Both the position numbers and the translations under genes were made by a program. From the NCBI RefSeq assembly GCF_000016745.1, contig NC_009483.1, positions 1,440,001 through 1,472,000 of the forward strand: a DNA stretch of 32,000 nucleotides. The letters run 5' to 3'. Source of the DNA: Geotalea uraniireducens Rf4. GTDB lineage: Bacteria > Desulfobacterota > Desulfuromonadia > Geobacterales > Geobacteraceae. The notes beneath the pieces were generated by a model that worked only from the letters and a program-made list of their open reading frames with translations, did not search any database and was not told the DNA's origin. The stretch's first letter is position 1. Each line of letters opens with the position of its first letter. Positions 2,250 to 30,962 of this stretch are shown here, one piece after another.

Positions 2250-2957
2250 TTATGGCGTATCTCTTAGACGATAGCCGACTCCCGGCTCAGTCAGGATGTA
2301 GCGGGGGCGGGAGGGGTCTGTCTCGATCTTGTGGCGCAGGTTGCTGATGTTGACGCGCAGCACGTGGGGCTGTTCAACGTAGGCAACACCCCAGATCTGC
2401 CGGAGGATCTGGCTGTGGGTCAGGACCTTCCCCGCATGGGTCACCAGCAGGCGCAGCAGTTCGTATTCGGTGGGGGTTAGTTGCACCTCTTCGCCGCGGA
2501 CCGTTACCCGGCGGCGGGGGAGGTCCACTTCCAGCTCGTTTATCCGGTAGACCGGTTCCGGGACCTGCTGCATGGAGCGGCGCAGCGTCACCCGTATCCG
2601 GGCGGTCAGTTCCCCGATGCCGAACGGCTTGGTCAGGTAGTCGTCGGCGCCGGCGTCCAGGGCCTTCACCTTGTCGTCTTCCCGCTCCCGCACCGACAGG
2701 ACGAGGATCGGCACCTGCGACCATTCCCGTATCCGCCTGATCACCTCCACCCCGTCCATGTCCGGCAATCCAAGGTCAAGGAGGATCACATCGGGCTTGA
2801 TTGCTACGGCTGCCGCCAGCGCAGCATGGCCGTTTTCCGCCTGGTGGAGGGAGAACTCCCCGGTATCCAGCGCAGTACGCAGGAAACGCTGAATTGCCAT
2901 CTCATCGTCTACCACCAGGATGCGCGGCAGGCTGGCGCTGGTCTTCTCGCTCGACAT
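2250..2957 (-). CDS. kdpE: OmpR-family response regulator, KdpE-type
   Basis: Receiver domain (ILVVDDE...DLGLPDMDG...KP) plus winged-helix output (LTPTEYELLRLL...GVGYRL). Start moved to ATG 2957 (MSSEKT...), preceded by a GGTGGA RBS. The longer ORF-track start at 3044 runs into the repeat array. Same strand as kdpD. Confidence 0.85.
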   Translation of the reverse strand: MSSEKTSASLPRILVVDDEMAIQRFLRTALDTGEFSLHQAENGHAALAAAVAIKPDVILLDLGLPDMDGVEVIRRIREWSQVPILVLSVREREDDKVKALDAGADDYLTKPFGIGELTARIRVTLRRSMQQVPEPVYRINELEVDLPRRRVTVRGEEVQLTPTEYELLRLLVTHAGKVLTHSQILRQIWGVAYVEQPHVLRVNISNLRHKIETDPSRPRYILTEPGVGYRLRDTP

Positions 2958-2989
2958 GACTTCCACCTTTCCTATAAAAAGCATTTTAA

Positions 2990-3104
2990 CCACGAATGAC
3001 ACGAATTTGCACGAATATACAAGCTCTTGCGATGCAAAAGGCACTCACCAGATCGGTGACTTCTCAAGATTTAACAAAGGGTTAAAAACATTCGTGTTTA
3101 TTCG
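2990..3104. repeat. palindromic array of phased CACGAAT heptamers, interrupted by the group II intron (remaining 12 nt at 5178-5189)
   Basis: CACGAAT at 2991, 3000 and 3010. Inverted ATTCGTG at 3090 and ATTCG at 3100. TGTCATTCGTGG at 5178-5189 is the reverse complement of 2990-3001. Confidence 0.6.
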
Positions 3105-3672
3105 GTACGCCAGGCCAAGCCTGGCTGATCTATCTGACTGAAAAGTGTCAGACATGTAAATTGCTCGTTCACCATGTAGTCGCGGTCTGTCACGAGAGGG
3201 TAACCAAACGTGGGGAGTAAGACCGGTTCTTTGTAAGAAAAGAGCGAAGGGTACGATAACTACCCTGACGACGAAGACGCGAGCCCAGCGCAAGCGAACC
3301 CGTTTCGGCCTCGTTACACGTAGTTGACAGTGGCCAACCTTCCGAATGTGGTGAAGCCTGCCACCCACCGGTGATAAACGAGCGAAAGAACCGGTGGGAC
3401 TGTCCGGGGTGATTGGGGAGGGCGCGTGTCGAAAGATCAGCCGAGGAACCTGGGAGGTCCGACGTAATTCCCAAAGCGAAAGGGTTTCGCCGAAGGGAGA
3501 ACGCCGACGGGGAATCAATAACCCGCCAAGCGTGTACGGTCGGAATTCGGAGCGGCCCATAGTAGCCGGGAAGCGGGGTAATGCCCGTGGAGCCAAGGGG
3601 CCGTACTTCAGTCATGTTTACACGGAAAGAGAGGAGACCCGCTTGAGCGACAGACGCTCCATAACGGAATGG

Positions 3673-4977
3673 ATGGCCGAAGGATTCGAACCTGAACCCG
3701 GACTGCCGGTAAAAGTCTCCCTTCTGCGGTGGAAACTGAGCAGCAAGGCCAAACGAGAACCGCAGTTCCGGTTCTATGCCCTTTACGACCGAATCCATCG
3801 TCGTGATGTACTTGAAACGGCGTGGTTGCGAGTAAAGGCGAACAAGGGCGCGCCGGGAGTCGATGGTGTCAGCATTGAATCCATCGAGGTGCGGGCAGAC
3901 GGAATATCCGGCTATCTTGACGAAATTCAAGAAAGCCTGAGAACCAAAAACTACAAACCATCCCCGGTGCGTCGCGTCTACATCACCAAGCCCAACGGCA
4001 AACTGCGCCCGCTCGGCATACCGTGCGTGCGGGACAGAATTGTACAGGCAGCCGTACTCCTTATCCTCGAACCGATATTTGAGGTGGACTTTCTCGACTG
4101 CTCCCATGGATTTCGTCCCAAAAGGCGTCCCCATGGAGCCCTCGACCAAGTCGGTAATAACCTCCAACTCGGACGGCAGGAAGTGTATGACGCGGATCTT
4201 TCGAGCTACTTTGACAGCATCCCCCACGAGCACCTGATAGTAGAACTTGAGCGGCGCATAGCCGACCGGAGTGTCCTCAAACTGATCCGGCAATGGCTTC
4301 ACAGTCCGGTAGTAGAAGAAGACGGCAGCATCAGCCGTCCCAAACAAGGGACGCCACAAGGCGGGGTAATATCTCCCCTTCTTGCCAACATCTACCTTCA
4401 CCGGCTCGACCGGGCCTTTCACGAAGAAGCAGACAGCCCCTACCACTTCGCCAGAGCGCGCATGGTACGGTTTGCCGACGACTTCGTAGTAATGGCCAGA
4501 CACATGGGCAATCGCATAACCGGATGGCTGGAAGAGAAACTCGAAACAGACCTTGGACTCAGCATCAACCGTGACAAAACCGGTATTGTCAGAATGAACA
4601 AGAAAGAGAGCCTGAACTTTCTGGGATTCACCCTCCGCTATGACCGTGACCTGCGGGGCAGAGATTGGGATTATCTCAACATCATGCCGAGTAAGAAGGC
4701 CATAGGAGCACTCAAGGGAAAAATCCGGGAGAAGACCCGAAGCGGATACAAAAAGCCGCTTGTCGAAGCAATTGCCGAGGTAAACAGCATCCTTCGCGGA
4801 TGGGGCAACTACTTCGACTACGGGTATCCCCGGAAAGTATTTCGAGACGTGAATCATTACACGAGGACTCGCTTTCGAATATTTCTGAACAATCGGAGCC
4901 AAAGGCGGAGCAAACCCTTCAGGGCAGGTGAAAGCCTGTATGCCGGACTTAAGCGATATGGTCTGGTTTACCTGTAA
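3673..4977 (+). CDS. group II intron-encoded reverse transcriptase/maturase (no endonuclease domain evident)
   Basis: [15 protein letters not shown]...[11 protein letters not shown]-terminus, RT blocks (RPLGIP, SHGFRP) and an FADD catalytic motif. Maturase-like tail (ILRGWGNYF). Start chosen at ATG 3673, because the ORF-track start at 3394 lies inside ribozyme domains. Confidence 0.9.
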
Positions 4978-5028
4978 CAGCAAAGCCACAACTCCTCAAT
5001 AATGCCGTGCAGCAAGAGGCTGATAGGT

Positions 5029-5061
5029 AAGCCGTATGCGGGAAATCCGCACGTACGGTTT
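5029..5061 (+). ncRNA. domain V of intron 1
   Basis: AAGCCGTAT-GCGG-GAAA-TCCGC-AC-GTACGGTTT. This gives a 9-bp lower helix with an AGC triad, a 2-nt AC bulge and a GAAA loop, matching the textbook domain V. Confidence 0.85.
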
Positions 5062-5211
5062 GACGAGGGGGAGCTGGTTAAGGCAACTATGGTAAGGCTA
5101 CTTAGGCACCGCCAAACGAAAGGGGCGGAAACGGACAAGCCAAACCTAATGATGTAGTAACCTGCTTCCTACTCTACTGTCATTCGTGGCTAACTGCCCT
5201 TTTTGGGTTAA

Positions 5212-7881
5212 TTACTTGACGGGGAGCGTGGCGATTACCCGCAATCCTCCGCCGTCCCGGTTTTCCGCCCGGATCTTTCCATGATGGGCTTCGACGATTC
5301 CCTTGCAGATGGAGAGCCCGAGTCCGGTTCCGCCGGCACCCTCGGGGACCGGAATCCGGTAGAACTTGTCGAAGATCCTCTTCAGGTCTGACTCCGGTAC
5401 ACCGGGGCCGCGGTCGGAAACCTCCAGCGTCAGTCTGCCGTCGTCCACCCGGGCGGCAATGTCGATAATGCTCGCATGCGGCGAATATTTCAAGGCGTTA
5501 TCCAGCAGGTTCACCAGCACCTGGGTCATCAGCGCCATGTCCAGCTTGACCAGCGGCAGGCCGTCCGGCAGCTGCACCTTGACTTCCCTTGCGCCGATTC
5601 GCTGTTCCAGCGCGGCCAGGGCGCATCCGACCAGGTCCTGAATGTCGCACGGTTCTTCCTTCAAGGTGACCGCGCCGGCTTCCAGGCGGGTCATGTCCAG
5701 CAGGTTCCCGACAAAGCGGTTCAGCCGCCCGGCCTCTTCCCATGCGGCATCGAGAAGCTCCCGCCGTCTCGTATCGCTTAACCGGTGTTCCTTGTCCCGG
5801 AGGGTGCCCAAGGCCCCGGTTATGGATACGAGCGGAGTCCGCAAGTCGTGGGAAACGGAATTGAGGAGGGCCCGTTCCAGGGTTTCCCGTCCCTGGAGGA
5901 TCAGGGCCTGTGCGGCCTGTTTTCCGAGCTGGACCCGCTCGATGGCAAGGGTCGTCTGGGTGGTGAAGGCGTCGAGAAGCCTGCGGCTCTGGGTGTTGGC
6001 ATAATCCGCCTCGTCTTCCAGCTCTACCCCCAATACGCCGAGCACGCTCGCCGAAGTCTGCAACGGAAGATAGAGGAGCCGGGCCGAACTGAGGGTTTCG
6101 GTGCCGTGCCCCGCAGACTGGCGGTTCCGAAATGCCCAGTCGGCCACCGCCAGCTCCTTCGTATCAAGCTGCATTTCACGGCTTGCGGCCTTTATCTCCA
6201 GGCGCTCACCTTCCGGGATAAGGACAGCCAGCCTGCCGTTGAAGCTTTCTCCGAAGTTCTTGGCTACGGCGTCCAGGACCGCCCCGATGTCGGCGGAAAC
6301 GGCCAGGTCGCGACTCAGGTAGTAGAGGCTCGCTGTCTGGACTTCCCGCTTTCGTATCGCCTCGGCCCGTTCGCGGGACCTGGCGACAAGGGTGCTGATC
6401 ACCACCCCCACCGTGAAGAGGGCGACGAAGGTGATGAGATATTCGGTATCGGCAACGGCGAAGGTCAGGCGTGGCGGGACGAAGAAGAAGTCGAAGGCGA
6501 GAATCCCCAGAAATGCCGTAACGATCGCCGGTTTCAGTCCGAGCCGGAGCGCCGCCAGCACCACCGCCAATAGATACGCCATGACCATGTTGGTCGGCGC
6601 CAGGAACGGGCGGACCAGTTCACAGGCAAGGGTTGCCGCGGCAACGAGCGCCAGGCTCTTCATGTAGCCGGACCAGGGGGATGGGCTTTTGCGCCTGGCT
6701 AGAGCCGTTCCCTCGCTCTTTTCGGAAGGCTCGATGCTGACGACGTAGACGTCGATCGTCCCGCTCCTGCGGATGATCTGGTCGACGAGGGGAGGATTCA
6801 GGAATTCCATCCAGCGCGGCTTGGTCGGTTTGCCGACCACGATCTTCGTGACGTTATGCTTGACGGCAAAGTCGATGACAGAATCGGCCACCGAGGTTGC
6901 CGAGACAGTCGCCACCTCTCCCCCCAGGCTTTCGGCGAGCCGGAGGTCCTTCCAGACCCGCTCCCGGTTTTCCTGCACATGCTTCCCACTGCCGGGAGTT
7001 TCGATGTAGACCGTGTACCAGTGCGCCTTCATCTCATCCGCAAGCCGCCGTGTCGAGCGGATCAGCTTTTCACCGAAAGGGCTGCCGCTCACGCAGACCA
7101 GGAGTCGCTCCGCGGCGGGCCATGGACCGGCGATGGAGCGCGTCTCCATGTAGGCCCGCATCTCTTCGTCCACGCGGACTGCGGCCCGTCGCAGCGACAG
7201 CTCCCGCAGGGCGATCAGGTTCCCCGGCTTGAAAAACTTCTCCATTGCCAGGGTCGCCTGTTTAGGGATGTAGACCTTCCCTTCGTGGAGACGCTGGAGG
7301 AGTTCATCCGGCGGTATGTCCACCAGCCTGATCTCCGCCGCCTCGTCCAGGAGCCGGTCGGGAACGGTCTCCCGCACCACCACGCCGGTAATCTGGGCGA
7401 CGATGTCGTTCAGGCTCTCGAAGTGCTGAATGTTGACCGTGGTGTAGACGTCGATCCCGCTGGCCAGGATCTCCTCCACATCCTGCCACCGCTTCTCGTG
7501 GCGGGAGCCGCGGGCATTGGTGTGGGCCAGCTCGTCCACCAGGGCTATCTGGGGCTTTCTGGCAAGCACCGCATCGGTGTCCAACTCAGGAAGTAACACC
7601 CCCATATGCTCGATCTGCGCCTTGGGGATGATCTCCACCCCGGACATGGAGAGTAGCGAGTCGGTCTCGAACCGGCCGTGGGACTCCACGTAGGCGGCCA
7701 CCACGTCCCGTCCCTCCATTTTCCTCTGCCACCCCGCTTCCAGCATGGCATAGGTCTTCCCGACCCCTGCGGCGTAGCCGAGAAATATCTTCAGCTTCCC
7801 CCTTCCGTCTTCCTTTTCTTCCGCCTGGGCCAGCTTCAGCAGGGCTTCCGGTGAGGGGCGTTTGTCGTCGTTGTCGGTCAT
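5212..7881 (-). CDS. kdpD: sensor histidine kinase KdpD
   Basis: 889 aa. KdpD N-terminal P-loop domain (LGYAAGVGKTY), a Usp-like region, a 4-TM block and a GAF-like region. HisKA (SHDLRTPL) and HATPase (GGTGLGLSI). The start overlaps the kdpC stop (ATGA). Confidence 0.95.
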   Translation of the reverse strand: MTDNDDKRPSPEALLKLAQAEEKEDGRGKLKIFLGYAAGVGKTYAMLEAGWQRKMEGRDVVAAYVESHGRFETDSLLSMSGVEIIPKAQIEHMGVLLPELDTDAVLARKPQIALVDELAHTNARGSRHEKRWQDVEEILASGIDVYTTVNIQHFESLNDIVAQITGVVVRETVPDRLLDEAAEIRLVDIPPDELLQRLHEGKVYIPKQATLAMEKFFKPGNLIALRELSLRRAAVRVDEEMRAYMETRSIAGPWPAAERLLVCVSGSPFGEKLIRSTRRLADEMKAHWYTVYIETPGSGKHVQENRERVWKDLRLAESLGGEVATVSATSVADSVIDFAVKHNVTKIVVGKPTKPRWMEFLNPPLVDQIIRRSGTIDVYVVSIEPSEKSEGTALARRKSPSPWSGYMKSLALVAAATLACELVRPFLAPTNMVMAYLLAVVLAALRLGLKPAIVTAFLGILAFDFFFVPPRLTFAVADTEYLITFVALFTVGVVISTLVARSRERAEAIRKREVQTASLYYLSRDLAVSADIGAVLDAVAKNFGESFNGRLAVLIPEGERLEIKAASREMQLDTKELAVADWAFRNRQSAGHGTETLSSARLLYLPLQTSASVLGVLGVELEDEADYANTQSRRLLDAFTTQTTLAIERVQLGKQAAQALILQGRETLERALLNSVSHDLRTPLVSITGALGTLRDKEHRLSDTRRRELLDAAWEEAGRLNRFVGNLLDMTRLEAGAVTLKEEPCDIQDLVGCALAALEQRIGAREVKVQLPDGLPLVKLDMALMTQVLVNLLDNALKYSPHASIIDIAARVDDGRLTLEVSDRGPGVPESDLKRIFDKFYRIPVPEGAGGTGLGLSICKGIVEAHHGKIRAENRDGGGLRVIATLPVK

Positions 7882-12575: not shown

Positions 12576-12861
12576 AATTTGGTCTCCGGTTGATATCGTT
12601 CTTTACCAAGTTTACCACGCAATACGCTTGCAGACAGGAGCGGGCCGTGTGCGGAGTTCCCGGCGCTGCAAACGGACCGTTCCATGATTGTCACTGTAGC
12701 GCGAAAGTGATAAAGGGGGGCTCAAGATGCCATGGAAAGACGTCAAGAAGTTATCAAGATGTGGAAGAGAAAGAGCAGCCCCGGCTGCATTTGTATTTGC
12801 CTCAGCCGGTGATAACCTTTACCCTTGAAACGCAGCGTGATTAAATTCCTGGAGGTGCTTC

Positions 12862-13347
12862 ATGCGGAAATCCGTCATCAAGGGAATCTTCAGTTCGGCT
12901 CTGTCGGCTGTCAGCAGCATCGGCGCCCGCTCTCTGGAGCCGGGGGAAAAGGCTCCCCCCTTCGAGGCCCCCTCGACCAGCGGAGTGGTGCGGCTGGCCG
13001 ATTACCTGGGGAAGCGGAACGTGCTGCTTGCCTTCTATTTCGTCGACTTCACCCCGACCTGAACGGATGAGATGCGGGCCTTTCAGCGGGACCTCTCCCG
13101 CTTCGAAGGCCTCAACGTCCAGGTCCTGGGCGTAAGTCCCGACAGCCCCGCCACCCACGATGAATTCAGCGCCAGGCACGGCATCACCTTTCCCCTCATC
13201 TCCGACGAGAAAGGGGCGGTGCAGAGGCAGTACGCTCCCGGCCGCGTCACCTTCATCATCGACAAGGCCGGAATCGTCCGTTTCATCCAGAAGGGGGTGC
13301 CGGACAACGAGCTGCTCCTCGGGGAACTGGAAAAACTCGAGACTTGA
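12862..13347 (+). CDS. peroxiredoxin (Bcp/PrxQ-like), predicted selenoprotein with Sec at TGA 13060-13062
   Basis: ORFs 12862-13062 and 13072-13347 share one frame. The joined sequence reads ...LLAFYFVDFTPT-[TGA]-TDEMRAF...VLGVSPDS...FPLISD. The TGA sits where the peroxidatic Cys of the TPxCTxE motif belongs. GGAGG RBS before ATG 12862. Confidence 0.75.
13077..13111 (+). promoter_or_regulatory. candidate bacterial SECIS stem-loop
   Basis: It begins 15 nt after the TGA. Lower stem GGCCTT/AAGGCC, upper stem AGCGGGA/TCCCGCT, apical loop CCTC. The loop lacks the usual G/U, so this is tentative. Confidence 0.4.
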
Positions 13348-13361
13348 TACTTAATTCCTCC

Positions 13362-13390
13362 TTGACTTATATAAGCACATCGATTAAATT
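13362..13390 (+). promoter_or_regulatory. sigma70-like promoter candidate for the DTW gene
   Basis: TTGACT (13362-13367), a 17-nt spacer, then TAAATT (13385-13390). Confidence 0.35.
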
Positions 13391-13453
13391 CCGCCCCTGT
13401 CCCGAATTGCACGCATACTTCGATATTTTTCAAAGGTAAAGAGTTCCACTGTT

Positions 13454-14056
13454 ATGGGTTCCAGATCAAAACGAAGCGAACGTTGCCCGCGGTGCCGAAT
13501 GCACGTTCCCCTGTGCATTTGCCGATCGATTCCCCGGTATGCCCTCGATACCCGTCTCGTCCTCGTGATGCACCATCGCGAGCACATAAAGACCACTGCG
13601 ACCGGTCCACTTGCCCTTGAAGCTCTGCCCAACAGCGAATTGCGCATTCACGGTCATCGGGACCGGCCGCTAGATTTCAGCGATCTCGACATTCCCGACC
13701 GGAGAACGCTTCTCCTCTACCCGGGAGATGACGTTCCGGTACTGAGCAGGAGTTTACTGGAGCAGGACAACCGGCCCGTCACCCTCGTGGTTCCTGACGG
13801 CAACTGGCGTCAGGCCTCCAGAATGGGACGGAGGCTTCCAGGACTTGAGCACGCGGAAATGGTCCGGCTTCCGGAAGGACCTCTGACCCGGTGGGGAATC
13901 CGAAGAGAGGCCCACCCGCAGGGCCTGGCGACATTCGAAGCCATTGCCAGGGCCCTCGGCATCATTGAATCACCTGCTGTTCAGGCGGGCATGGAAGATC
14001 TCTTTCGCCTCATGGTGCAAACAACACTCCATTCACGAGGATGCCCGGTCGTATAG
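13454..14056 (+). CDS. DTW-domain protein (tRNA-uridine aminocarboxypropyltransferase family)
   Basis: N-terminal Cys cluster CPRCRMHVPLCIC, and LVVPDGNWRQA in place of the DTW motif. About 200 aa, typical for the family. Confidence 0.8.
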   Translation: MGSRSKRSERCPRCRMHVPLCICRSIPRYALDTRLVLVMHHREHIKTTATGPLALEALPNSELRIHGHRDRPLDFSDLDIPDRRTLLLYPGDDVPVLSRSLLEQDNRPVTLVVPDGNWRQASRMGRRLPGLEHAEMVRLPEGPLTRWGIRREAHPQGLATFEAIARALGIIESPAVQAGMEDLFRLMVQTTLHSRGCPVV

Positions 14057-14474: not shown

Positions 14475-15125
14475 GTGCGCCAGGCATGGCGCGTGGCGCG
14501 TAAGCGCCATCCAATCAGGTGTGGTGCCTGATTGGTGACTTGGAGGTGCAAGTCCTCTACGGACCCTGATGGTGGGAACCGTTAGCCGAACAGCAAGGGT
14601 GTCCGGGGCGACCCGGAATCTGAAGGAAGCTGTAAGCAAAGTCCCGGCCCGACGAACAGGAATCGCATATGAGGCAGCCACATCTGGGCGAGAGGGCTAA
14701 GAGACTCAAAACCCGATTACCATCCGGAAGGTGTGGAAGTAGATGCGGCGGGTGTATGGGATGAAGGTCACGCGAATTACCCTGGGAGATCTGGCAACCT
14801 GCCTTGTGCTACCGACATCGAGAGGTGTCGGGATGGGATGCCAGAAGTCAGCAGACGCCATATTAGTCGGCCTTACCAGTTGATGAAGGGCTGAACCTGT
14901 CAGAGCGTCCTTGATGGATATTCTGATTGTCTTGAGCAGAAGCCTCGCAAGAGGGCCTGATAAACCCGTAAGTAGCGGACGGAATCCGTGAGGCAGGGTT
15001 GGGTGCTTATAGGACATCAGGGATGGAAGTCAATAACGGAACATGCTGACAGGAATCGCCGTGTACGGAACCGTACGCACGGTGGTGTGGGAGGACGGCG
15101 GGGGCGACCCCGCCTCCTACCCGAT
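14475..15125 (+). mobile_element. ORF-less group II intron-like RNA (651 nt)
   Basis: 5' GTGCGCCAGGC. Domain V at 15056-15085. Domain VI at 15089-15122 has a GCGA tetraloop and bulged A15119, 7 nt from the AT-3' end. No RT-like ORF is present inside. Confidence 0.75.
15056..15085 (+). ncRNA. domain V of intron 2
   Basis: TCGCCGTGT-ACG-GAAC-CGT-AC-GCACGGTGG. This gives a 9-bp lower helix with a CGC triad and an AC bulge, but only a 3-bp upper helix and a non-GNRA loop. Confidence 0.7.
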
Positions 15126-15650: not shown

Positions 15651-16154
15651 ATGACCATCAGTAATGTGAAGCGCATCCCGGTAATTGCAGGAGCCCGTAA
15701 GGCGAGTGCAATTACCGGGATGGCCCCCGAAGATTTAACTCGGCAACAGCAGGAATTGACTACCTCACCGCCTGACCCGGAGGTAGCGGAAAAGCCTGTA
15801 CGCAGGCGTTTCACGGCTAAGTACAAACTTGACATCCTAAACCAAGTCGACTCTTGCACCAAGCCCGGTAGCCTGGCAGCGCTATTACGTCGAGAGGGGC
15901 TTTATGCTTCCAACCTCAACACCTGGCGCCGCCAGCGGGATGAAGGAAGCCTTGCGGCGCTTACGCCCAAGCAGAGGGGCCGTAAAGCGCTAAAGCCCGA
16001 TCCCATGGCCGTCGAGAACGAGCGACTGCGCAAGGAGATTACCCGCCTTGCCAAACGCCTCAAACAGGCCGAGTTGATCATCGATGTCCAAAAAAAAGTC
16101 TCGCAGATCCTGGGGATCACCTTGGATACGCCGCCAGAGAGCGAGAGCGACTGA
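15651..16154 (+). CDS. IS3 transposase OrfA (HTH/leucine zipper part)
   Basis: 167 aa, typical IS3 OrfA. It ends just downstream of the A-run slippery site. Confidence 0.85.
   Translation: MTISNVKRIPVIAGARKASAITGMAPEDLTRQQQELTTSPPDPEVAEKPVRRRFTAKYKLDILNQVDSCTKPGSLAALLRREGLYASNLNTWRRQRDEGSLAALTPKQRGRKALKPDPMAVENERLRKEITRLAKRLKQAELIIDVQKKVSQILGITLDTPPESESD
16090..16098 (+). promoter_or_regulatory. programmed -1 frameshift slippery run (A8G)
   Basis: AAAAAAAAG lies in the orfA/orfB overlap window, like the IS3-family A6G/A7 motifs. Confidence 0.6.
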
Positions 16155-17152
16155 TGGAAGCTGTCGAAATACTTGCCCCTGATGTGGGCACCGATCCTGC
16201 CTGTAAAGCTCTTGGTGTTTCCCGTGCCGGGCTGTATCGCAGGCGCGCAATCAGCAAGACAGCGCCGCGTGTACCCCAAAAGCGCCCTGTGCCGCCACGG
16301 ACCTTGCCATCAGAGGAAAGGCAGGCAGTACTCGATATTCTGCATTCCGAGCGCTTTCAGGACAAGGCACCCCATGAGGTGTATGCAACGCTTTTGGACG
16401 AAGGGGCCTATCACTGCTCGATCCGCACGATGTATCGAATTCTCGAAGAAAACGCCGAAGTCAAAGAGCGGAGAAATCAGTTGCGGCATCCCGACTACAA
16501 AAAGCCTGAGCTTCTGGCAACGGCCCCAAATCAAGTCTGGTCGTGGGATATTACCAAATTGATGGGGCCTGCTAAATGGTCCTATTTTTACCTCTATGTG
16601 ATTCTCGATATCTTCAGCCGCTATGTGGTCGGCTGGATGGTTGCAACCTGCGAGTCGTCGGAACTGGCCAAACGGCTGTTCAAAGAAACGTGTGAGAAAC
16701 AAGTCATCCAGAAAGGGCAGTTAACGATCCACGCCGATCGCGGCTCTTCCATGAAATCCAAGCCGGTAGCTTTTCTGTTTGCTGATCTGGGGATCACTAA
16801 AACGCACTCAAGGCCCTATACGAGCGACGACAACCCATATTCGGAAGCCCAATTTAAAACGCTGAAATATCAGCCTGATTTCCCGGAAAGATTCGGCAGT
16901 ATAGAAGACGCAAGATCGTTCTGCCAAACCTTTTTCCCCTGGTATAACCAGGAACACAAGCATTCCGGCATCAGCCTACTTACACCTGAAGTAGTACATT
17001 ACGGCAGAGCTGAGGAAGTCATCCGATCAAGGCAAACCGTGTTGACTGCTGCTTATGCAGCCCATCCTGAACGCTTCGTCAGGAAAATACCATTACATAA
17101 ACCGTTACCGGAAGCGGCGTGGATCAACCCGCCAAAACCGGCCACTAGCTAA
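16154..17152 (+). CDS. IS3 transposase OrfB (DDE/rve integrase core), probably made as an OrfAB fusion
   Basis: WSWDIT...LYVILDIFSR...HADRGS...NPYSEAQFKTLKY are typical of rve-domain cores. The -1 frame is open from 16091 to the ATG at 16154. Confidence 0.9.
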   Translation: MEAVEILAPDVGTDPACKALGVSRAGLYRRRAISKTAPRVPQKRPVPPRTLPSEERQAVLDILHSERFQDKAPHEVYATLLDEGAYHCSIRTMYRILEENAEVKERRNQLRHPDYKKPELLATAPNQVWSWDITKLMGPAKWSYFYLYVILDIFSRYVVGWMVATCESSELAKRLFKETCEKQVIQKGQLTIHADRGSSMKSKPVAFLFADLGITKTHSRPYTSDDNPYSEAQFKTLKYQPDFPERFGSIEDARSFCQTFFPWYNQEHKHSGISLLTPEVVHYGRAEEVIRSRQTVLTAAYAAHPERFVRKIPLHKPLPEAAWINPPKPATS

Positions 17153-22915: not shown

Positions 22916-22968
22916 ATTGTCACCTTAATTTTCAATAGTCACACTTTCTGAGAGTATAATAACTGTCA

Positions 22969-23649
22969 CCACCAATCACCTCCAGCATCACCATCATCTC
23001 CACCATCATCATCAGACCCACCGCCCGAAGAACCTGAATTACCAGTCGTTGAACCAGAATTATCGGATGTAGAGCCAGTATTACCAGAAGTCGAATTATT
23101 GCCAGGTGTGTAGTTTTGATACCAACTGTTGAAATCATAAGTCGGTAAAGTATAAGTAGGAATTGAAGGTAAATCGGGCATAGGCGATTGAGATAACAGA
23201 TAAGACAAACTACCATCAATTTGACCAGAACCCAAAAGGGATTGGTCGAATGCATTACCTTTAGCAGTCGATGAAGAATGTTCACCATAAGTCTCAAAAA
23301 CATCTTTTGTAAATAAAGGAACTCCAGCGGCGCGAGTCATTGTAGCGATTGACCTGTCCGCAACTTCTGCAGTTTCAACAACTGTTTCAATGTTTCTTCC
23401 TATCTTTGCCGCAGCTGCAGCGCTTCCAACACTAAGAAGATTGAGTGATTCCAGCCCCATAGTTGCTTTGTAATCAAAGTCCGACATAGTTCCAGTTTTG
23501 TGCTCATAATACGCATTCCCCATTGATAATAAAGACAAGCCAATTCCAGTACCTTTAACAATGGCACCACCAACGCCGGTCGGAGCTGCATAAACTGCCG
23601 CTGTATTAACAACAGTGCTACAGAACCCCAATGCGCAAGACCTGGGCGA
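22969..23649 (-). other. Rhs C-terminal (post-DPSGH) toxin domain, family unassigned
   Basis: 227 aa after the core motif. It has Gly/Ala-rich hydrophobic stretches (AAVYAAPTGVGGAIVKGTGIGLSLLSMG; LLSVGSAAAAAKIG). An S/T/N/G low-complexity region follows. The tail is acidic (GGGSDDDGGDDGDAGGDWW). Confidence 0.6.
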
Positions 23650-24975
23650 ATGGCCGCTAGGGTCTCTGTATTTGACCGGATTATTCAGCGCATAAGCATA
23701 CCTGTTCAGACTCTGCGGGTTCCCCGGACTAGGCACGATACTATCGGGAGAAATAAACCGCCCAATATCGGGGTCATAAAGTCTTGCACCGTAGTTATAG
23801 AGTCCTGTTTCATAATCCAGCTCCTGGGCGGTGTACTTATGAGTCATGCCACCTATTGGCTTGCTGTCCAGCCTTGTTTCGCCGTAAGGGTAGTAGTAGA
23901 TGTCCTCCACCTTGTTGCCGTAGTCATCGGTCGTAATCGCCGTACTTCCAAGGTGGTCAGGGTGGTAATATATGGTCGAACCCTGGAAGTTCCTCGCAAT
24001 TCTGGTATTTCCGGCAAAGATGTAATTGCCGCAGTTACCATTGATGCATTCGTACAATTTACCGATGTACATCCTTGTATTCGAGTTTAACTTTTTCACC
24101 CTTTTTCCGTTGCCGTCATAAATGAACGTCGTTGTGACACCGTTCATGGTAGCAGTTTTCGGCAAGTTGTCCGGGGTATACGTTACCGTCCTCTGGCCGT
24201 CGGATGTCATATTGCCGTTGTCGTCGTACTGGTAGACCCTACCGGGTGCGGTCGAGGCGGTCTGAACGGCATGGGCACGGGTCGGATCAAGGGTATAGCC
24301 GACCGAGCCATAAGTAAGGTTATGCGGGATGGAGGGATTGACAAGGTCATTCAGGTCAATCATATTCCCCTTGCTGTCATAGTTGTAGGTGCGGTAAAGC
24401 AGACTATTCTGCAGCTGATCGGCCTTCATGGCAAAAAGGCGGTAATTTTGCGGATAGTACCAGTAACTGGTGACGATGCCGTTGCCATAGTAGAGTTTGC
24501 CTGGCTGGCCGAGGGCGTTGTACTCGTCGTATTCCGCATAGCCGCTGATGTCGAACAGGTTGCCAGCCGCGTCGTAATGGTAATCAACGGATTCGCCATC
24601 CGGGTAAGTGATGTTGTTCAACCTTCCCATGCCGTCATAGGATTTCACAATGGTATAGTCGACGTTGTCTACCGTTTTGACGGTTCTTGTCACCCTGCCG
24701 GAGAGGTCATAATTGTAGGTGGTCTTCCCGGAACCGTCTGTCATGGAGGTAAGCCTGCCAAACGGATTGATTGAGGTCGTTTCGTCGTAAGTAAAGACTA
24801 CGTCTGTTTCACCCGAATCTGCCGGGTAATGTTTGTGCGTTGGCCGGTTCAAAGCATCGATGTCGAAGGTGATGAGCTGGCCATTTACCTTGTGATTGGC
24901 ATCTTTGACCCAAAGCAGGCTGCCATCGGGATAATAGCGGCGGGTGTCAAGGTAGTTGTCGCCTCTGTTGAATTT

Positions 24976-26001
24976 TTATGCGGCGTCAAGAAGTTCGACT
25001 TCCGCCGTTGGTTCAGGGTTAAGATAAACTGTTTCCACTGGCTCCCAGTTTCGGATGTTTTTTGACCAGCGGTTTGGGTTTTGTTGCCGGGCCTTCTCGT
25101 ATATCTCCCGGCGGTTTAACAGGATGGCTTTCTCCCGGCCGAAGTGGCGATCGTCCGGGGTGACGAAGCGAATGCCGCTGTGCAGATGCTCCGTGTTATA
25201 CCAAGCGACGAAACCATCAACCCAAGTCTGGGCCGCTGCCAGACTTGAAAAAGGCCGACTCGGATAACCAGGTCTATATTTCATGGTTCGGAACAGCGCT
25301 TCTGAGAAAGGGTTGTCGTCACTGACCTGTGGCCTGCTGAAGGAAGGAATTACGCCCAGGCGCTGGAGAGTAGCCAGCATGGTCGCCCCTTTCATCGGGC
25401 CGCCGTTGTCGGAGTGAAGAATCAGGCCTTCCGGATTGATGCCGAGCCTGATACAGGCTTTCAGAAACAGCCTGGCGCTATAGTCATTGGATTCTTTTAA
25501 AAACACCGTGGACGCTACGATCTTGCGGCTCCAGACATCCATGATCATGTAGAGATAAAAGAACTGCCCAAGAATCGGGCTCTTCAAGTAGGTGATGTCC
25601 CATGACCAGACCTGGCAAGGACCGGTAGCCACATGTTCTTTTGGCTTGCGGCTGGTGGCGGGCCGGGAGGGTTCCCGGTGAGTCATCAGCCCATCGTCTT
25701 TGAGCACCCGGTAGAAACTCGATTCCGACGCCACGTATATTCCCTGATCGGCCAATTGCGGCACGATCTGTTTCGGCGAAATATCCCGAAACGCCGGGGA
25801 GTTTGCAATATCGATGATGTTCTGCCGCTCCGACGGAGCCAGCTTGTTCGCCGGTTCTGCGACTGGCCCATGTCGCCGATCTGCTCCGTCATCCTGGAGA
25901 TTCCAACGCTGGAACGTGCGAATGCTCAGCCCGATGGCGACAACGGCCGATTCAAGTCTCGCTCCGGAATGGGTTGCCTCTTCAATAAGTTGCCCGATCA
26001 T
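24976..26001 (-). CDS. IS3 transposase OrfB (rve/DDE core)
   Basis: WSWDITYL...LYMIMDVWSR...HSDNGG...NPFSEALFRTMKY. The -1 frame is open from the A-run to its ATG. Confidence 0.9.
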   Translation of the reverse strand: MIGQLIEEATHSGARLESAVVAIGLSIRTFQRWNLQDDGADRRHGPVAEPANKLAPSERQNIIDIANSPAFRDISPKQIVPQLADQGIYVASESSFYRVLKDDGLMTHREPSRPATSRKPKEHVATGPCQVWSWDITYLKSPILGQFFYLYMIMDVWSRKIVASTVFLKESNDYSARLFLKACIRLGINPEGLILHSDNGGPMKGATMLATLQRLGVIPSFSRPQVSDDNPFSEALFRTMKYRPGYPSRPFSSLAAAQTWVDGFVAWYNTEHLHSGIRFVTPDDRHFGREKAILLNRREIYEKARQQNPNRWSKNIRNWEPVETVYLNPEPTAEVELLDAA

Positions 26002-26531
26002 CTGCCGTTCCTCTTGTCCGTGGGCTCGTCCTCGCCCCCCCAGATCGATTGGACTTTTTTTTTGAGGATCAAAATCGCGGCGGCCTCGGCCAATGCTTTA
26101 TCTTTGCGCAGTAATTCTTTTTCCAGTGCATGAATTTTGCGAGTTTCCTCTGATGTTTTTGAGGAAGGCCGAGACGGTTTTTGCAGCCCCGAAAGCATCA
26201 TGGCGCGCCACTCGCGTAACTGTGCTTCATGAATTCCATTGCGACGCAGGAAGGCGCCAAGTTGATCTTCGGCAACCGTCTCGGCTTCGATGACGATTTT
26301 GAGCTTTTCTTCGGCAGACTTGTCTTGTGGGCGCTTTGGGGACATTGTTCTCCATGGTGCTTCAGAAATTGGGGAGTTACCAGATTCATTCACGACATTT
26401 GCGTCTCGAAGCCAGCGAGAGAGTGATTGTTGGGGAATTCCCACTTCTCGGGATAGAGCTGAGGCCGAGACGCCATTAGGGCAGGCCATCTTGCGAACCA
26501 GGCTGGATTTGAATCCTTGTGTGTATGTCAT
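25998..26531 (-). CDS. IS3 transposase OrfA
   Basis: 177-aa HTH-type OrfA. Its stop overlaps the orfB ATG (ATGA). Confidence 0.85.
   Translation of the reverse strand: MTYTQGFKSSLVRKMACPNGVSASALSREVGIPQQSLSRWLRDANVVNESGNSPISEAPWRTMSPKRPQDKSAEEKLKIVIEAETVAEDQLGAFLRRNGIHEAQLREWRAMMLSGLQKPSRPSSKTSEETRKIHALEKELLRKDKALAEAAAILILKKKVQSIWGGEDEPTDKRNGR
26055..26063 (-). promoter_or_regulatory. programmed -1 frameshift slippery run (A9 followed by G on the minus strand)
   Basis: The minus strand reads CTC AAA AAA AAA GTC within orfA (LKKKV). The -1 frame continues into orfB. Confidence 0.6.
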
Positions 26532-29500
26532 TATAGATCCTTGCTGCCCCCAGATGTTGAAAAAATACGGGTCGCCGGCTTTTGCCGGTCCCGGTCTTTC
26601 GAGCTGAATCGCAAGCTCGCTACGCTCGTTGCAATTCAGCTCGAAAGACCGTGGCTAAACAACCCATCTGAGGCGACAACTATTCTGACACAGGGGGATA
26701 GCTGTATTCCCAATACCCCATGTCCGGGTCGGTCATGTTCTTTTTCCGCCCCAAGGTGTCGTACTCAATGTGCGTTTTTTTCTGATTGGCGACGGGCACG
26801 CCCATCTGGTTGGCATCGATTACATCCGTAAGATTTCCAAGAACGTCGTAAGTATAGGTGGTAGTAGCGTAAAGTGTGAACTGGCTTGGATTCTGAGTTG
26901 TGTCGCATGTCGTGGAGGTCCCCGTGTACTCTTCCACTGTAACAAGACGTCCCAGTGCATCCCGCGTTTCACGCCTGCGGTGGCCGTTTTCGTCTATGAA
27001 GACGCTCACGAGGTCGTTGTAGCAGGCCAGTGTGAACGTGTTGTCCGGGTTGGTTGTTCTCGTCACTCTTCCCATCGGGTCATAGGTGTAAGTCCGGTAA
27101 ACCGGCGTTTCAACGCCCTCAAAATAAGGGGCTGAAACACTGTTCACCTTTCCTCTTTGGTCATATACCGTTTCGGTGACGATAACCTTGTTGTCAGGCC
27201 CGCTTTTCCGTACCTTGAATGTCCGTCCCAAGCCGTCGAAATAGGAGGCGGACCACATGCCCAACTGATTATAGGTATAAACGTTTTGACTGCCGACCGT
27301 ACCGAAGGAGTTATAAGCAGTACTCGTCGAGAACAGGTCCGGCTGAATATCCTTTGTCTTTCTGCCGAATACATCGTACACCGCCGTTATGGTCGCGTTG
27401 TTGGGGTCGGAAATACTCTTCAGTTGGCCAAAGCGTCCATTGTCGGCGGCTATGCCGACGCCATAATAGGCGGAGGTCGTCGTCTGGGTCTTGGCATTGG
27501 TGCTTGAGACAGGGAAAGTTTGATAGATGGTGTCAAAACCTGTTGTGGTTACGTTGCCGTTAGGGTCGCGGGTGCATACCGGATTGCCGTAGCCGTCATA
27601 AGCCGTCCGGGTTTCAGAGTTGTTGCCACCATTGAGCCAGCGGGATACGACGGTTAGGTTCCCATTAGTTGGAGTATGATTGTATTGGGAGGCGGCAGAG
27701 CAATTGGCAAGAGGGAAGTCATCGTAATAATAATCCGTCTGGCTGACCTTCAGGTTGGTACCGATATTTGTATCGCCTATGCCTTGGAAAACGCTAACAG
27801 TGGCTGGTAAAGATACTATCCAGTTGGTAACATTTGGTGAAAACTGCCTCTCGATGGTCATGTTCAGGGAGACATTAGCAGGATTCATGATGTCACCATA
27901 ACGATCTTCGCGGGTCACATTGCCGTAATTTGCATGAGGTGAGGTAAGGTAATCATCGTAGTAGTAGACGGTTCGTGTCTGTCGAGCGCTACCACTATCC
28001 CTGCACTGCCCGTATGCTTGCCCATCACAGATGTAGGTGTCTACCTTGGTGGCTGGACTGTAGTTGTAAGGGGTTGACGTGTAAGTCGAGTATGATGTCT
28101 CAGTTTCGGAATATACTTTACCCTGACCGTCAGATATCCGTGTCCTGTAAGGTTTCCCTTTCATGAACCCAACGGTCGCCGATGGGTTGTTCACGTCTAC
28201 AGCGGTATCATCCCCTTGGTGAAACCATGTTTCTGTTACGGTCAGTTCATTGTTCTTTCCGGGACCGATTACCTTCGCAGAGTTGAAGCCGCGAAAGTCC
28301 TTTGCACTGAAATTGTAGTAGCCGCCGGAATAGGAATAGTTCGAGGTGGAGGTGTTGTTGTTACCGTCACTGACGGATACGCTTGAGATAAGTTGCATGG
28401 TGAATGGAAGCTGGGCATACCATGAGGAGGGTGAATAGGAGACGCTGATTTCGCCGCCAAGGCCGTTGGAGACGTGCGTAAGAAGGTCAGTCAACGGCGC
28501 GTTGGCATAGCCCGATTCCCAATGAAAAGCTCCACCTGGATAAGAGGTGTCATGTGGATAGCACACGATGTCGGTCTTGCCATCGGCATTATAGTCTCCG
28601 GCAAAGCATTGCTGGCTGACTGACGTTTCAGGAGAAGGGCCGCCGTCCCAAGAAAGGGTGTTCCAGCCGTTTCCGAGAGATAAAGCCGTGCTCCAGATAC
28701 CGCCGGAGGTGTAGCAGGAAATATCGGTTTTGCCGTCGCCATTGAAATCGCCGGACAAGCATTTTGTGTTGATTGGAAAGGAGACGATGGCGCCGCCCAT
28801 CGAGAAAGAGGCCGTGTCCCAGCTGCTGCCGGTTGACAGTTGAACATTCCACAAACCGCTGCCGGAGGCACAGGCAATATCGGTCTTGCCGTCACCGTTG
28901 TAATCTCCAGTCATACAGATTCCGCTCAGGATGTAGTTTGATTTGACGAAGTCCGGAGCCATCCCGTTGCTATACCAAGTGGCAGGCGTCCAACCGTTGC
29001 CGTTGGAGAGGTACATATTCCAGGTGCTGGTGTTCCCGGAGTTGCAGGCAAAGTCGGTTTTGCCGTCGCCGTCGAAGTCACCGGTCAGGCAGTTGTTGGT
29101 TGGATAAGTGAAGGTAGTTGGCCCGTCGGACCATTGGACTGGGCTGCTGCCCCATGCGCTGCCGGTGGACAACGCCATTTTCCAGGTATTGCTGGCATAA
29201 CAGGCAAAGTCCGACTTGCCGTTGCCGTCGAAATCACCGCCAAAACATTGAGTTATGGGCAGAACAGTTGGAGCGTTATGCCAGGTTTCTTTAGTCCAGA
29301 TTTCTCCGGCTCCTCCCGGGAAAACCATGGTCCAGTCCCCGTTATTGGCAAAATTGCAGGCAAGGGCGTTTTTCCCTTCGCCATTGAAATCGCCGGTAAC
29401 GCATTGATGTCCCAAAGAATCCTGGGAAAGATCCGTAGGCTTGTTGCCGTCAGGTAACCATTGCAAAGATATCCCATTCACGTCAAGATTGTTGAATAAA

Positions 29501-30962
29501 TACTTGAGGTCCCACCCGGTGCTACCGGTAGAGCAAAGGATATCGAATCTGCTGCCGAATTTGCCGGGGATGCAGTACATGCCGACAGGGAGCGGCATAG
29601 ATACCCCGATAGGGTCAGAAAGACTCCATCCGCCGCTGGATGTTCCGCCGGCAACGGTGTAACCGTTGGAGTATCCAAGGGTGATAGGCGGCTTTGTGGT
29701 CGTACCGTCACTGCCGTACTCTGTCACCGTGCCGAGAACCGACCTGTTGGTCAGTGGACTGTACTGGTTGCCGGTCGTCGTCGAGTCGGCATCATAGTTC
29801 AGTTCATATTTTCTTACCCGCAAGGGTTGTGTGTTAACTGTGTTATAGTTGGACCAAACCTCGATGGTCTTGAGCCGCTTCGCCGTGGTGACGGCAAAGT
29901 TGGTTGTGTACATTGTCGGGGCGTCGTTGCGGTCTTCGAGGATGAACTTTACAGAATTGGTAGGGGGGAGTTTATGAGTGACAGGGTCGTTGCCGGTGTA
30001 GTCTATCTCGTTCAAGTATAACTGGTTCCGGTCCGGGGTGTAGTTGAGAGTGACGTAATTGCCATTCGTATCGGTTATCAGGTCAAGACACCATTTGAAG
30101 ACGTGGGCCGGCTTGTTGGGGTCGTAGACTGTGGTGTTGGGTTCGTGACCGAAACGGAAGCGTACCCCCTTTTTATCAATCGCTTCCCAATAGGTTCCAT
30201 AATTTATAAACCGAATGAAGTTCCCTTCTATCTTGGCGCGGTATTCGGAGGTGCCGGGGAGATTGACCAATTCCGTTACCCCGCCCGGTCCGCGCAATAG
30301 AAAGTCGCTGGCGTCATAGTTCACGCCTCCTTTGGTGCTCCGCTCTATTGAACCCATTTCCAGTTCCCAGCCGACACCCAGCCAACCGTTGCCGTTCGTG
30401 CTCCGATAGGTGAGGACTATGCCGGGATCTACACCTCTACGGCCGGGCGGGACTTCAATAGGAATGCGATAGCTCATGGTCCCTGTGAAGAGGTCTGGTA
30501 AAGGCGTGTCGCTGTTTGCCGAGGTGTCGGTTCCGTCAGCGACTTCCTTGCCGACAACTTTCTCGTCTGCCGCATGGGCATTTACGGTGAAGAAGATGGA
30601 AAGCGTCAGGCATAGAACGAGAACGGCGTTTTGCAGGGAATTGCCAGCACAACGGATGGGAATCATGTGGAGCCTCCGTTTATATTGCATTAAATTAAAA
30701 GGTAACTATTCAGCGTATATGTTTTGACGTCGGAGGATAGGCATCCTGCCTGTCTTCAGGCGAAGTTTCATCAGCCTGACAAGTTTGAACTGAACACATG
30801 TTCAAGCGATAAACCCGCTTGAAACACAGGCTAGAAGCCTATTGGTTGGTTGGGGAACCATCAAGATATCGCAGTGCTGCCGTTGTCGTTCGTTTTTTCT
30901 TCTTTCCCGGAATTCCTGGCTAACCCTTTCTTGCCTGATTCATATTTCAGAAGATAAACAGG

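Follow-up and report, generated by a model that had tools for sequence, protein, structure and literature searches.

Selenocysteine-containing peroxiredoxins with a T-x-x-U motif are an established family of bacterial selenoproteins, known from PrxU of Eubacterium acidaminophilum (2001), from 12 genes in a survey of 2006 and from the table of a 2026 review (PMC13188914; PMC1794560). Members such as those of Geobacter metallireducens, Syntrophus and Anaeromyxobacter combine an AhpC/TSA domain, in which selenocysteine (Sec) takes the place of the peroxidatic Cys, with an in-frame hairpin after the UGA codon, and they occur in anaerobic lineages of the Deltaproteobacteria type. Here, we describe a locus of Geotalea uraniireducens Rf4 that shares all of these traits. 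It lies in a stretch of 32,000 nucleotides (nt; positions 1,440,001 to 1,472,000 of NC_009483.1, referred to as the window, to which all coordinates below apply), where 12862-13347 very probably constitute one gene for a Sec-containing peroxiredoxin whose internal UGA is recoded. The predicted product differs from the described Sec-peroxiredoxins in that it scores far below the PrxU equivalog cut-off, is not among the 12 members of 2006 (PMC1794560), is shorter (about 137 aa when mature), bears a signal-peptide-like extension, contains no Cys and has Phe in place of the first Pro of the active-site motif. A second group from the same organisms, the peroxiredoxin-like thiol:disulfide oxidoreductase selenoproteins with UxxC or UxxU motifs (e.g. 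WUPYC in Geobacter; PMC1794560, PMC13188914), has the same Pfam domain, and the family is given among the selenoproteins of 'Geobacter uraniumreducens' (PMC1794560); the window protein, however, reads T-P-T-U-T-D-E, with neither Cys nor Sec at +3, and the sequences around the site are unrelated. Judged by its sequence, the gene is thus a member of the Sec-peroxiredoxin class, a bacterial selenoprotein class that an earlier note on this DNA had already named, without being a PrxU equivalog or a UxxC oxidoreductase.

At the level of the DNA, the locus presents itself as two open reading frames (ORFs), 12862-13062 (66 aa) and 13072-13347 (91 aa), which both start with ATG and lie in the same frame, with nothing but the TGA codon and the three sense codons ACG GAT GAG between them. 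Read-through yields a product of 161 aa, and the frame contains exactly one internal stop, no further stops and no frameshifts. The earlier note had described this layout and proposed a peroxiredoxin of 161 aa, and both hold: the match to Pfam AhpC-TSA (PF00578), obtained with Cys placed at the stop, covers residues 27-141 and hence both halves (1.4e-31; 109.4 bits against a gathering cut-off of 26). The features of the locus are compiled in Table 1.

Table 1. Features of the putative Sec-peroxiredoxin locus (window coordinates).
Feature	Position	Strand	Details and basis
Shine-Dalgarno-like GGAGG	12851-12855	+	6 nt upstream of ATG; read from the sequence
Complete putative selenoprotein coding sequence	12862-13347	+	161 codons, Sec at codon 67, true stop TGA 13345-13347
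Predicted signal peptide, residues 1-24, MRKSVIKGIFSSALSAVSSIGARS	12862-12933	+	cleavage predicted directly before LEPGEKAP
Thr64 codon of the TxxU active-site motif (T-P-T-U)	13051-13053	+	sequence; TxxU is the Sec-peroxiredoxin motif in PMC13188914
UGA, probably read as Sec67, peroxidatic position	13060-13062	+	PDB alignment; column is TGA in relatives, TGC in P0001/L023
SECIS-like two-tier hairpin, 37 nt	13076-13112	+	lower stem 13076-83/13105-12; upper stem 13085-91/13096-102; loop CCUC 13092-95
Arg128 codon, conserved active-site Arg (GRVTF)	13243-13245	+	nearly invariant column; aligns to the Bcp1 Arg of 'PARITFVID'

Recoding is supported by the conservation of the TGA itself. In alignments with PDB entries the codon falls into the column of the peroxidatic Cys (5enu, DNTPGCTTE; 3drn, a Cys-to-Ser mutant of Bcp1), and the Pfam homologues align in the same way, as the earlier note had anticipated. 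Full-length loci retrieved in a scan of species-representative genomes (n=19) have TGA in this column without exception; they stem from Desulfuromonadales/Geobacteraceae, Desulfobulbales, Desulfobacterales, Deferrimicrobia and Thermodesulfovibrionia; among 80 metagenome relatives sampled, 72 have TGA and the remaining 8 TGC or TGT, and the loci L025-L029 likewise carry TGA. An alignment to orthologues with Cys, a check which the earlier note had suggested, places Cys and Sec in one and the same column, not only in the 8 metagenome sequences but also in P0001 (locus L023), a clade member of 62% identity that has TGC at this position (FRPVCTGE) and is a single chain of 161 aa. The ratio of nonsynonymous to synonymous substitution rates (dN/dS), computed over 38 codons before and 45 codons after the TGA, amounts to 0.04-0.40 upstream and 0.04-0.33 downstream, values which indicate purifying selection acting in a single frame on either side of the codon.

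These data bear directly on the possibility of a pseudogene, in which a nonsense mutation from TGC or TGT to TGA at the catalytic Cys codon would have left the two ORFs as decaying remnants. Starting from TGC, a single base change would suffice; moreover, the halves are called as separate genes in public sets, and neither the 66-aa nor the 91-aa half is present among NCBI-sourced proteins, which would be compatible with an annotation as pseudogene. However, a TGA that recurs throughout the genome relatives and in most of the metagenome relatives, across several phyla, a dN/dS well below 1 on both sides, the lack of any other lesion, the conservation of the ribosome-binding site and of the N-terminal extension, and a hairpin that is specifically tied to the TGA forms (see below) effectively refute such a decay, whose probability we consider negligible. 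The earlier note's preference for recoding over a pseudogene is therefore supported by the TGA conservation, the dN/dS on both sides, the Cys orthologue and the hairpin, together with the presence of SelA and SelB discussed below.

The same applies to the notion of two separate products, i.e. an exported peptide of 66 aa and a C-terminal fragment of 91 aa translated from the ATG at 13072, which would associate or act independently. There is indeed an ATG at a distance of three codons from the TGA, with GGAUGAG in front of it as a possible weak Shine-Dalgarno sequence, and ribosomes probably terminate at the UGA to some extent when selenium is scarce. Among 20 homologues, however, the upstream start is ATG throughout, in most cases with a Shine-Dalgarno-like motif, while the Met codon of the downstream ORF is ATG in only seven, being CTG, ATT, ATC, CTC or CTT elsewhere; the downstream ORF thus has no conserved start. 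In addition, if the protein were made in two parts, the catalytic residue would be lost and the first active-site helix of the peroxiredoxin fold interrupted, and the Cys homologue P0001 is a single chain. Two genes are thus barely conceivable, and this reading was rejected.

A search of protein collections returned dozens of proteins of 89-92 aa that match only the C-terminal half (58-97% identity), which shows that the same ORF split has been made in many relatives; a full-length protein with X, W or C at codon 67 of the window gene was not present in the collection looked up. Apart from the full-length Cys form P0001, the search yielded several full-length forms with W (P0005-P0012), and these public calls raise the question of whether the TGA might be read as a standard amino acid without selenium, be it Trp or Gly by an alternative genetic code (codes 4/25) or Cys, Trp or Arg by near-cognate read-through. 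The conserved context of the codon would also fit read-through of this kind, the base following the UGA (position +4; 13063 in the window) being A in 81 of the 92 TGA loci. Yet the sole W form examined at the DNA level (P0005/L025) proved to contain a TGA which the gene caller had translated with another code. In the window, TGA terminates five of the 15 well-supported genes, this one included, an internal TGA is confined to this gene, and Trp is encoded by TGG; an alternative code was rejected accordingly, TGA being an ordinary stop here. Furthermore, the column is that of the redox-active Cys, where Trp or Gly would abolish catalysis, the genome encodes SelA and SelB, and a hairpin is located at the distance of a selenocysteine insertion sequence (SECIS). 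Insertion of a standard amino acid is thus highly improbable. As for the context of the Sec-UGA in general, synonymous codon identity among the 20 genome loci reaches 0.96, and GTC, GGT, GGC or ACC predominate as the codon in the 92 loci; along with the frequent A, this suggests that the recoded stop has a preferred context.

Two further observations concern the distribution of Sec at this position. A large and more distant group of peroxiredoxins (L061-L111), mostly from soil metagenomes, also carries TGA at the peroxidatic column (e.g. L107, 739-741) within motifs such as FYVFAFTGG*TKEMKAF, FYIAAFTxT*TQE and FYPLDWTPV*SEQ (the asterisk marks the TGA), each followed by a hairpin of its own; Sec at the peroxidatic column therefore appears to extend far beyond the clade of the window protein. 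Conversely, P0001 (L023, 1543-2028) is the sole form with Cys that was encountered within the clade. It has a second Cys (VLGVCADT, compared to VLGVSPDS in the Sec forms) and has lost both the hairpin and a conserved AFQRD segment, a pattern that would fit a Sec/Cys switch together with the gain of a possible resolving Cys.

With regard to the machinery required for selenocysteine insertion, for which the earlier note had proposed to look in the genome (selABCD), SelA (ABQ28305.1) and SelB (ABQ24380.1) are encoded by G. uraniireducens Rf4, as deduced from the sequences of 'Geobacter uraniumreducens' in the supplement of PMC1794560. The same study lists eight selenoproteins for this organism, comprising SelD, two FdhA and five others (PMC1794560), so that SelA, SelB and, by that listing, SelD are accounted for, while selC was not seen. 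None of the eight is listed as a peroxiredoxin, and the sequence supplement does not contain the window sequence (PMC1794560).

Immediately 3' of the UGA, and within the ORF, the mRNA is predicted to form a hairpin of two tiers that begins 13 nt after the TGA, with 29 nt between the UGA and the loop; the earlier note had placed a stem-loop at 13077-13111, essentially the coordinates obtained here. A fold of 66 nt has a free energy of -31 kcal/mol (z = -3.7; none of 200 shuffles as stable), and the hairpin is the most stable 45-nt segment of the gene (rank 1 of 131) as well as more stable than all 79 control blocks from the same gene (percentile 0). The near relatives L026-L029 retain a complete upper stem despite a Gly-to-Val change that breaks one lower pair, and among sequences sharing the register of the window, a subset picked by eye, the upper stem displays compensatory changes (one pair, for example, occurs as C-G, U-A and G-C). 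In the Cys form L023, the corresponding segment does not form a hairpin (-6.9 kcal/mol, rank 114 of 148). Since the register of the hairpin differs between clades, as does the loop (UUCCAG-CGNGAU-CUGGAA in Desulfobacterales, a long two-tier stem in Desulfuromonadales), stability was compared by alignment-free ranks within each gene. For the segment after the UGA of 92 Sec loci the median within-gene stability percentile is 0.139, with 71% of the loci at or below 0.25 (Wilcoxon p = 1.3e-14), as opposed to a median of 0.405 in nine Cys loci (Mann-Whitney p = 0.003 against the Sec loci), both p-values being optimistic due to the relatedness of the Sec and Cys loci to one another. Synonymous codon identity, in turn, is 0.55 in codons +1 to +17 after the TGA compared to 0.42-0.44 in the flanks.

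A known counterpart is the bacterial SECIS (bSECIS) model of the E. coli fdhF type, which specifies a loop of 3-9 nt, a stem of 4-16 bp, a G within the first two loop nucleotides, a spacing of 16-37 nt and a minimum free energy of -7.5 kcal/mol or lower (PMC13188914, Fig. 2). The window hairpin resembles this model in its location, and its spacing (29 nt), stem (7 bp), loop length (4 nt) and energy (-24 kcal/mol) are within the limits; in our own implementation of four bSECIS criteria, 12 of 20 Sec genes pass, compared to 18.6% of control sites.

A number of results nevertheless weigh against a recoded UGA that is served by this hairpin. No sel gene is encoded by the window or the relative loci fetched, and the window and 24 loci gave no match when searched for tRNA-Sec. 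The minimum-energy loop CCUC lacks the G that the bSECIS model demands, and the rule is satisfied only by a fold in which the two uppermost pairs are open, with the loop GACCUCUC, at -20.0 instead of -24.3 kcal/mol. A search with covariance models, as recommended by the earlier note, gave no match to the Rfam SECIS family, neither for the whole window at the gathering threshold nor for 12800-13400 at E <= 10. Covariation in a fixed register, assessed for three candidate structures with 20 and 93 Sec sequences, was no better than in shuffles or slid controls, and RNAalifold returned no consensus for 15 close relatives. No single structure is common to the clades, nor could a SECIS consensus be established across them. 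For comparison, many bacterial SECIS elements are described as mutually dissimilar, and a subset of them fails the bSECIS model (PMC13188914).

Taken as a protein, the read-through product has the usual catalytic triad of peroxiredoxins, Thr64, Sec67 and Arg128, all of which are conserved. The mature protein contains no Cys, a property common to the window protein and all 20 Sec forms. The earlier note had classified it as Bcp/PrxQ-type, which turned out to be approximate. In favor of this assignment, the Bcp/PrxQ proteins (Sulfolobus solfataricus Bcp1, 3drn; E. coli Bcp) provide the best PDB sequence matches (2e-19) and the top Foldseek match, and they share the size class and an active-site helix of the TP-x-C-T-x-E type. 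The window protein differs from them by Sec instead of Cys, by the signal peptide, and by the lack of a resolving Cys five residues after the peroxidatic residue and of the loop before the conserved Arg. In addition, none of the NCBIfam equivalog cut-offs is reached (Bcp, NF006960, 56.5 of 140; PrxU, NF040737, 50.4 of 270; PrxQ, 52.8 of 260). An AlphaFold model of P0001 (predicted local distance difference test score, pLDDT, 89.9) points to a thioredoxin-like peroxiredoxin fold, with template modeling (TM) scores of 0.77-0.86 to the structures of Bcp1, AhpE and Prx6. While Bcp1 yields the best E-value, the highest TM score (0.82-0.86) and the lowest root-mean-square deviation (1.4-1.8 Å) are those of AhpE of Mycobacterium tuberculosis (PDB 1xvw/4x0x), a 1-Cys peroxiredoxin which likewise relies on a single redox-active residue and an external reductant. 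AhpE, however, is only about 30% identical in sequence, cytoplasmic and Cys-based, and it is reduced by mycothiol/mycoredoxin, which is not known in these bacteria.

An N-terminal signal or anchor peptide had also been suggested by the earlier note, a proposal that is borne out by the homologues more clearly than by the window protein itself. Extensions of 22-27 aa are present in 19 of the 20 Sec homologues, the exception being L006 with about 33 aa, and they consist of a basic n-region, a hydrophobic core and, with small residues at -3/-1, an AxA, SxA or SxG motif, followed by L-[ED]-V-G-x-x-A-P as the conserved start of the peroxiredoxin domain. In the P0001 model, the region equivalent to the signal peptide has a pLDDT below 50. 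The maximum mean Kyte-Doolittle (KD) hydropathy of the core over 10 aa ranges from 2.0 to 3.8 in most homologues. To be set on the debit side of an exported peroxidase are the core of the window protein itself, which with a maximum KD of 1.61 is among the weakest, and the first residue of the active-site motif: the first Pro of the canonical PxxxTxxC is Phe in the window (FVDFTPTU) and F or Y in most of the clade. Because of the weak core, export is less certain for the window protein, whereas it appears likely for the clade. A search of the literature for exported or periplasmic Sec-peroxiredoxins revealed nothing relevant.

Thus, it might be argued that the protein is a true selenoprotein which resides in the cytoplasm or is anchored in the membrane, and which serves as a thiol-disulfide oxidoreductase or redox sensor instead of a peroxidase. 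Both of the features just named would fit, as would the core of L002, which contains an Arg and reaches a KD of only 1.32, a score of 42 bits against the thiol-disulfide oxidoreductase ResA in NCBIfam, and the lack of a conserved partner gene across the 21 loci compared, whose neighbors do not suggest a reductant. On the other hand, the Thr-x-x-Sec motif and the Arg typical of peroxidases are intact, a CxxC, UxxC or UxxU motif is missing (the sequence being U-T-D-E), the best matches by sequence and by structure are peroxiredoxins throughout, and textbook signal peptides are found in most homologues. We therefore consider a non-exported or non-peroxidase selenoprotein unlikely and favor an exported Sec-peroxidase.

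Based on these findings and on what is known of the family, the following course of events may be envisaged for the Sec-peroxiredoxin. The UGA at 13060-13062 would be recoded by SelB-GTP-Sec-tRNA(Sec), with SelB recruited by the hairpin within the coding sequence of the mRNA, and Sec would be inserted as residue 67, at the peroxidatic site of the TxxU motif, after which translation would proceed to the TGA stop at 13345-13347, which is not followed by such a hairpin. The N-terminal 24 residues or so probably act as signal peptide of the general secretory pathway, so that the protein would be exported through the corresponding translocon and the leader cleaved. The mature protein would be a periplasmic 1-Sec peroxidase whose selenolate attacks the peroxide, aided by Thr64 and Arg128, and whose selenenic acid would have to be reduced by an external partner, since the mature protein lacks any Cys. 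Comparative evidence strongly supports the recoding step; the insertion of selenium and the binding of SelB to the hairpin are what we infer from it, and export, peroxidase chemistry and the reductant are proposed by analogy to the family.

Downstream of the peroxiredoxin gene, on the same strand and at a distance of 106 nt, a gene for a DTW-domain protein is located (13454-14056; Pfam 2.3e-38), with a sigma-70-like match between the two (13362-13390). The pairing is retained in the closest relatives only, and the two genes are therefore probably not functionally linked. In the relatives L026-L029, the block of both genes is 98% identical to the window, and a segment of 4.6 kb with a gene for a Kelch/beta-propeller protein of 1394 aa is situated between kdpA and the peroxiredoxin gene (e.g. 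L026, 5127-9775). At the corresponding place (12766-12846), the window has only an intergenic region, which extends over 286 nt from kdpA to the peroxiredoxin gene.

Elsewhere in the window, a group II intron (3394-5177, +) is located between kdpD (5212-7881, -) and a response-regulator gene (2250-3044, -), on the strand opposite to both; it comprises an ORF for a reverse transcriptase/maturase (3394-4977; TIGR04416, 1e-115) and an Rfam Intron_gpII match at 5027-5177, and the ORF of 599 aa at 3190-4989 (-), which has no Pfam match, is an antisense shadow of the maturase ORF. Just downstream of the DTW gene, the region 14602-15125 (+) matches Rfam models of group II intron domains D1-D4 (14602-14775, 14809-14891) and of the catalytic domain (15054-15125), with only about 160 nt at the position of the intron ORF, and has the appearance of a group II intron that is degraded or has no ORF. 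Two elements resembling insertion sequences (IS) harbor ORFs with an rve integrase core, at 15651-17152 (+) and 24976-26531 (-); in the latter, an HTH_Tnp_1 ORF (25998-26531) and the rve ORF (24976-26001) share 4 nt, an arrangement known from the IS3 family. A Tc-toxin-like locus (22966-30690, -) comprises an RHS-repeat ORF (22966-24852) and the gene for an SpvB/TcdB-midN/FG-GAP protein (26680-30690). Of the RHS protein of L026, which has 1032 aa, only residues 400-806 are matched by the RHS-repeat ORF (68% identity), whose 5' part appears to have been lost next to the IS element.

Sec-peroxiredoxins and bacterial SECIS elements within the ORF are well established, and for this reason the locus described here does not overturn the current understanding. 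It does expose an antioxidant gene which public gene sets present as two meaningless fragments of 66 and 91 aa. Dozens of relatives have likewise been split, or mistranslated with Trp, and none of the equivalog models in NCBIfam extends to this family; selenoproteome counts and inventories of peroxide defense in Geobacter-type and other anaerobes are therefore too low. The clade to which the protein belongs is Bcp/AhpE-like, with a signal-peptide-like N-terminus, no Cys in the mature part and Sec in nearly all of its members, and annotation models seem to cover it poorly. Going further, it might tentatively be hypothesized, with somewhat more doubt than conviction, that these proteins form a distinct and largely unannotated clade of exported, Cys-free '1-Sec' peroxiredoxins between Bcp and AhpE, in which Sec is near-obligatory (about 90 TGA forms and a handful of Cys forms among those sampled) and which is widespread in anaerobic bacteria of sediment and soil. 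Such enzymes might detoxify peroxide in the periplasm by means of a reductant other than a thiol pair, e.g. a thioredoxin-like periplasmic protein or c-type cytochromes, and their SECIS hairpins might have been re-invented in each lineage in different registers. Sec as the only redox residue of a peroxiredoxin that bears a signal peptide raises the question of what reduces the protein outside the cytoplasm, and of why Sec has been so strongly retained.

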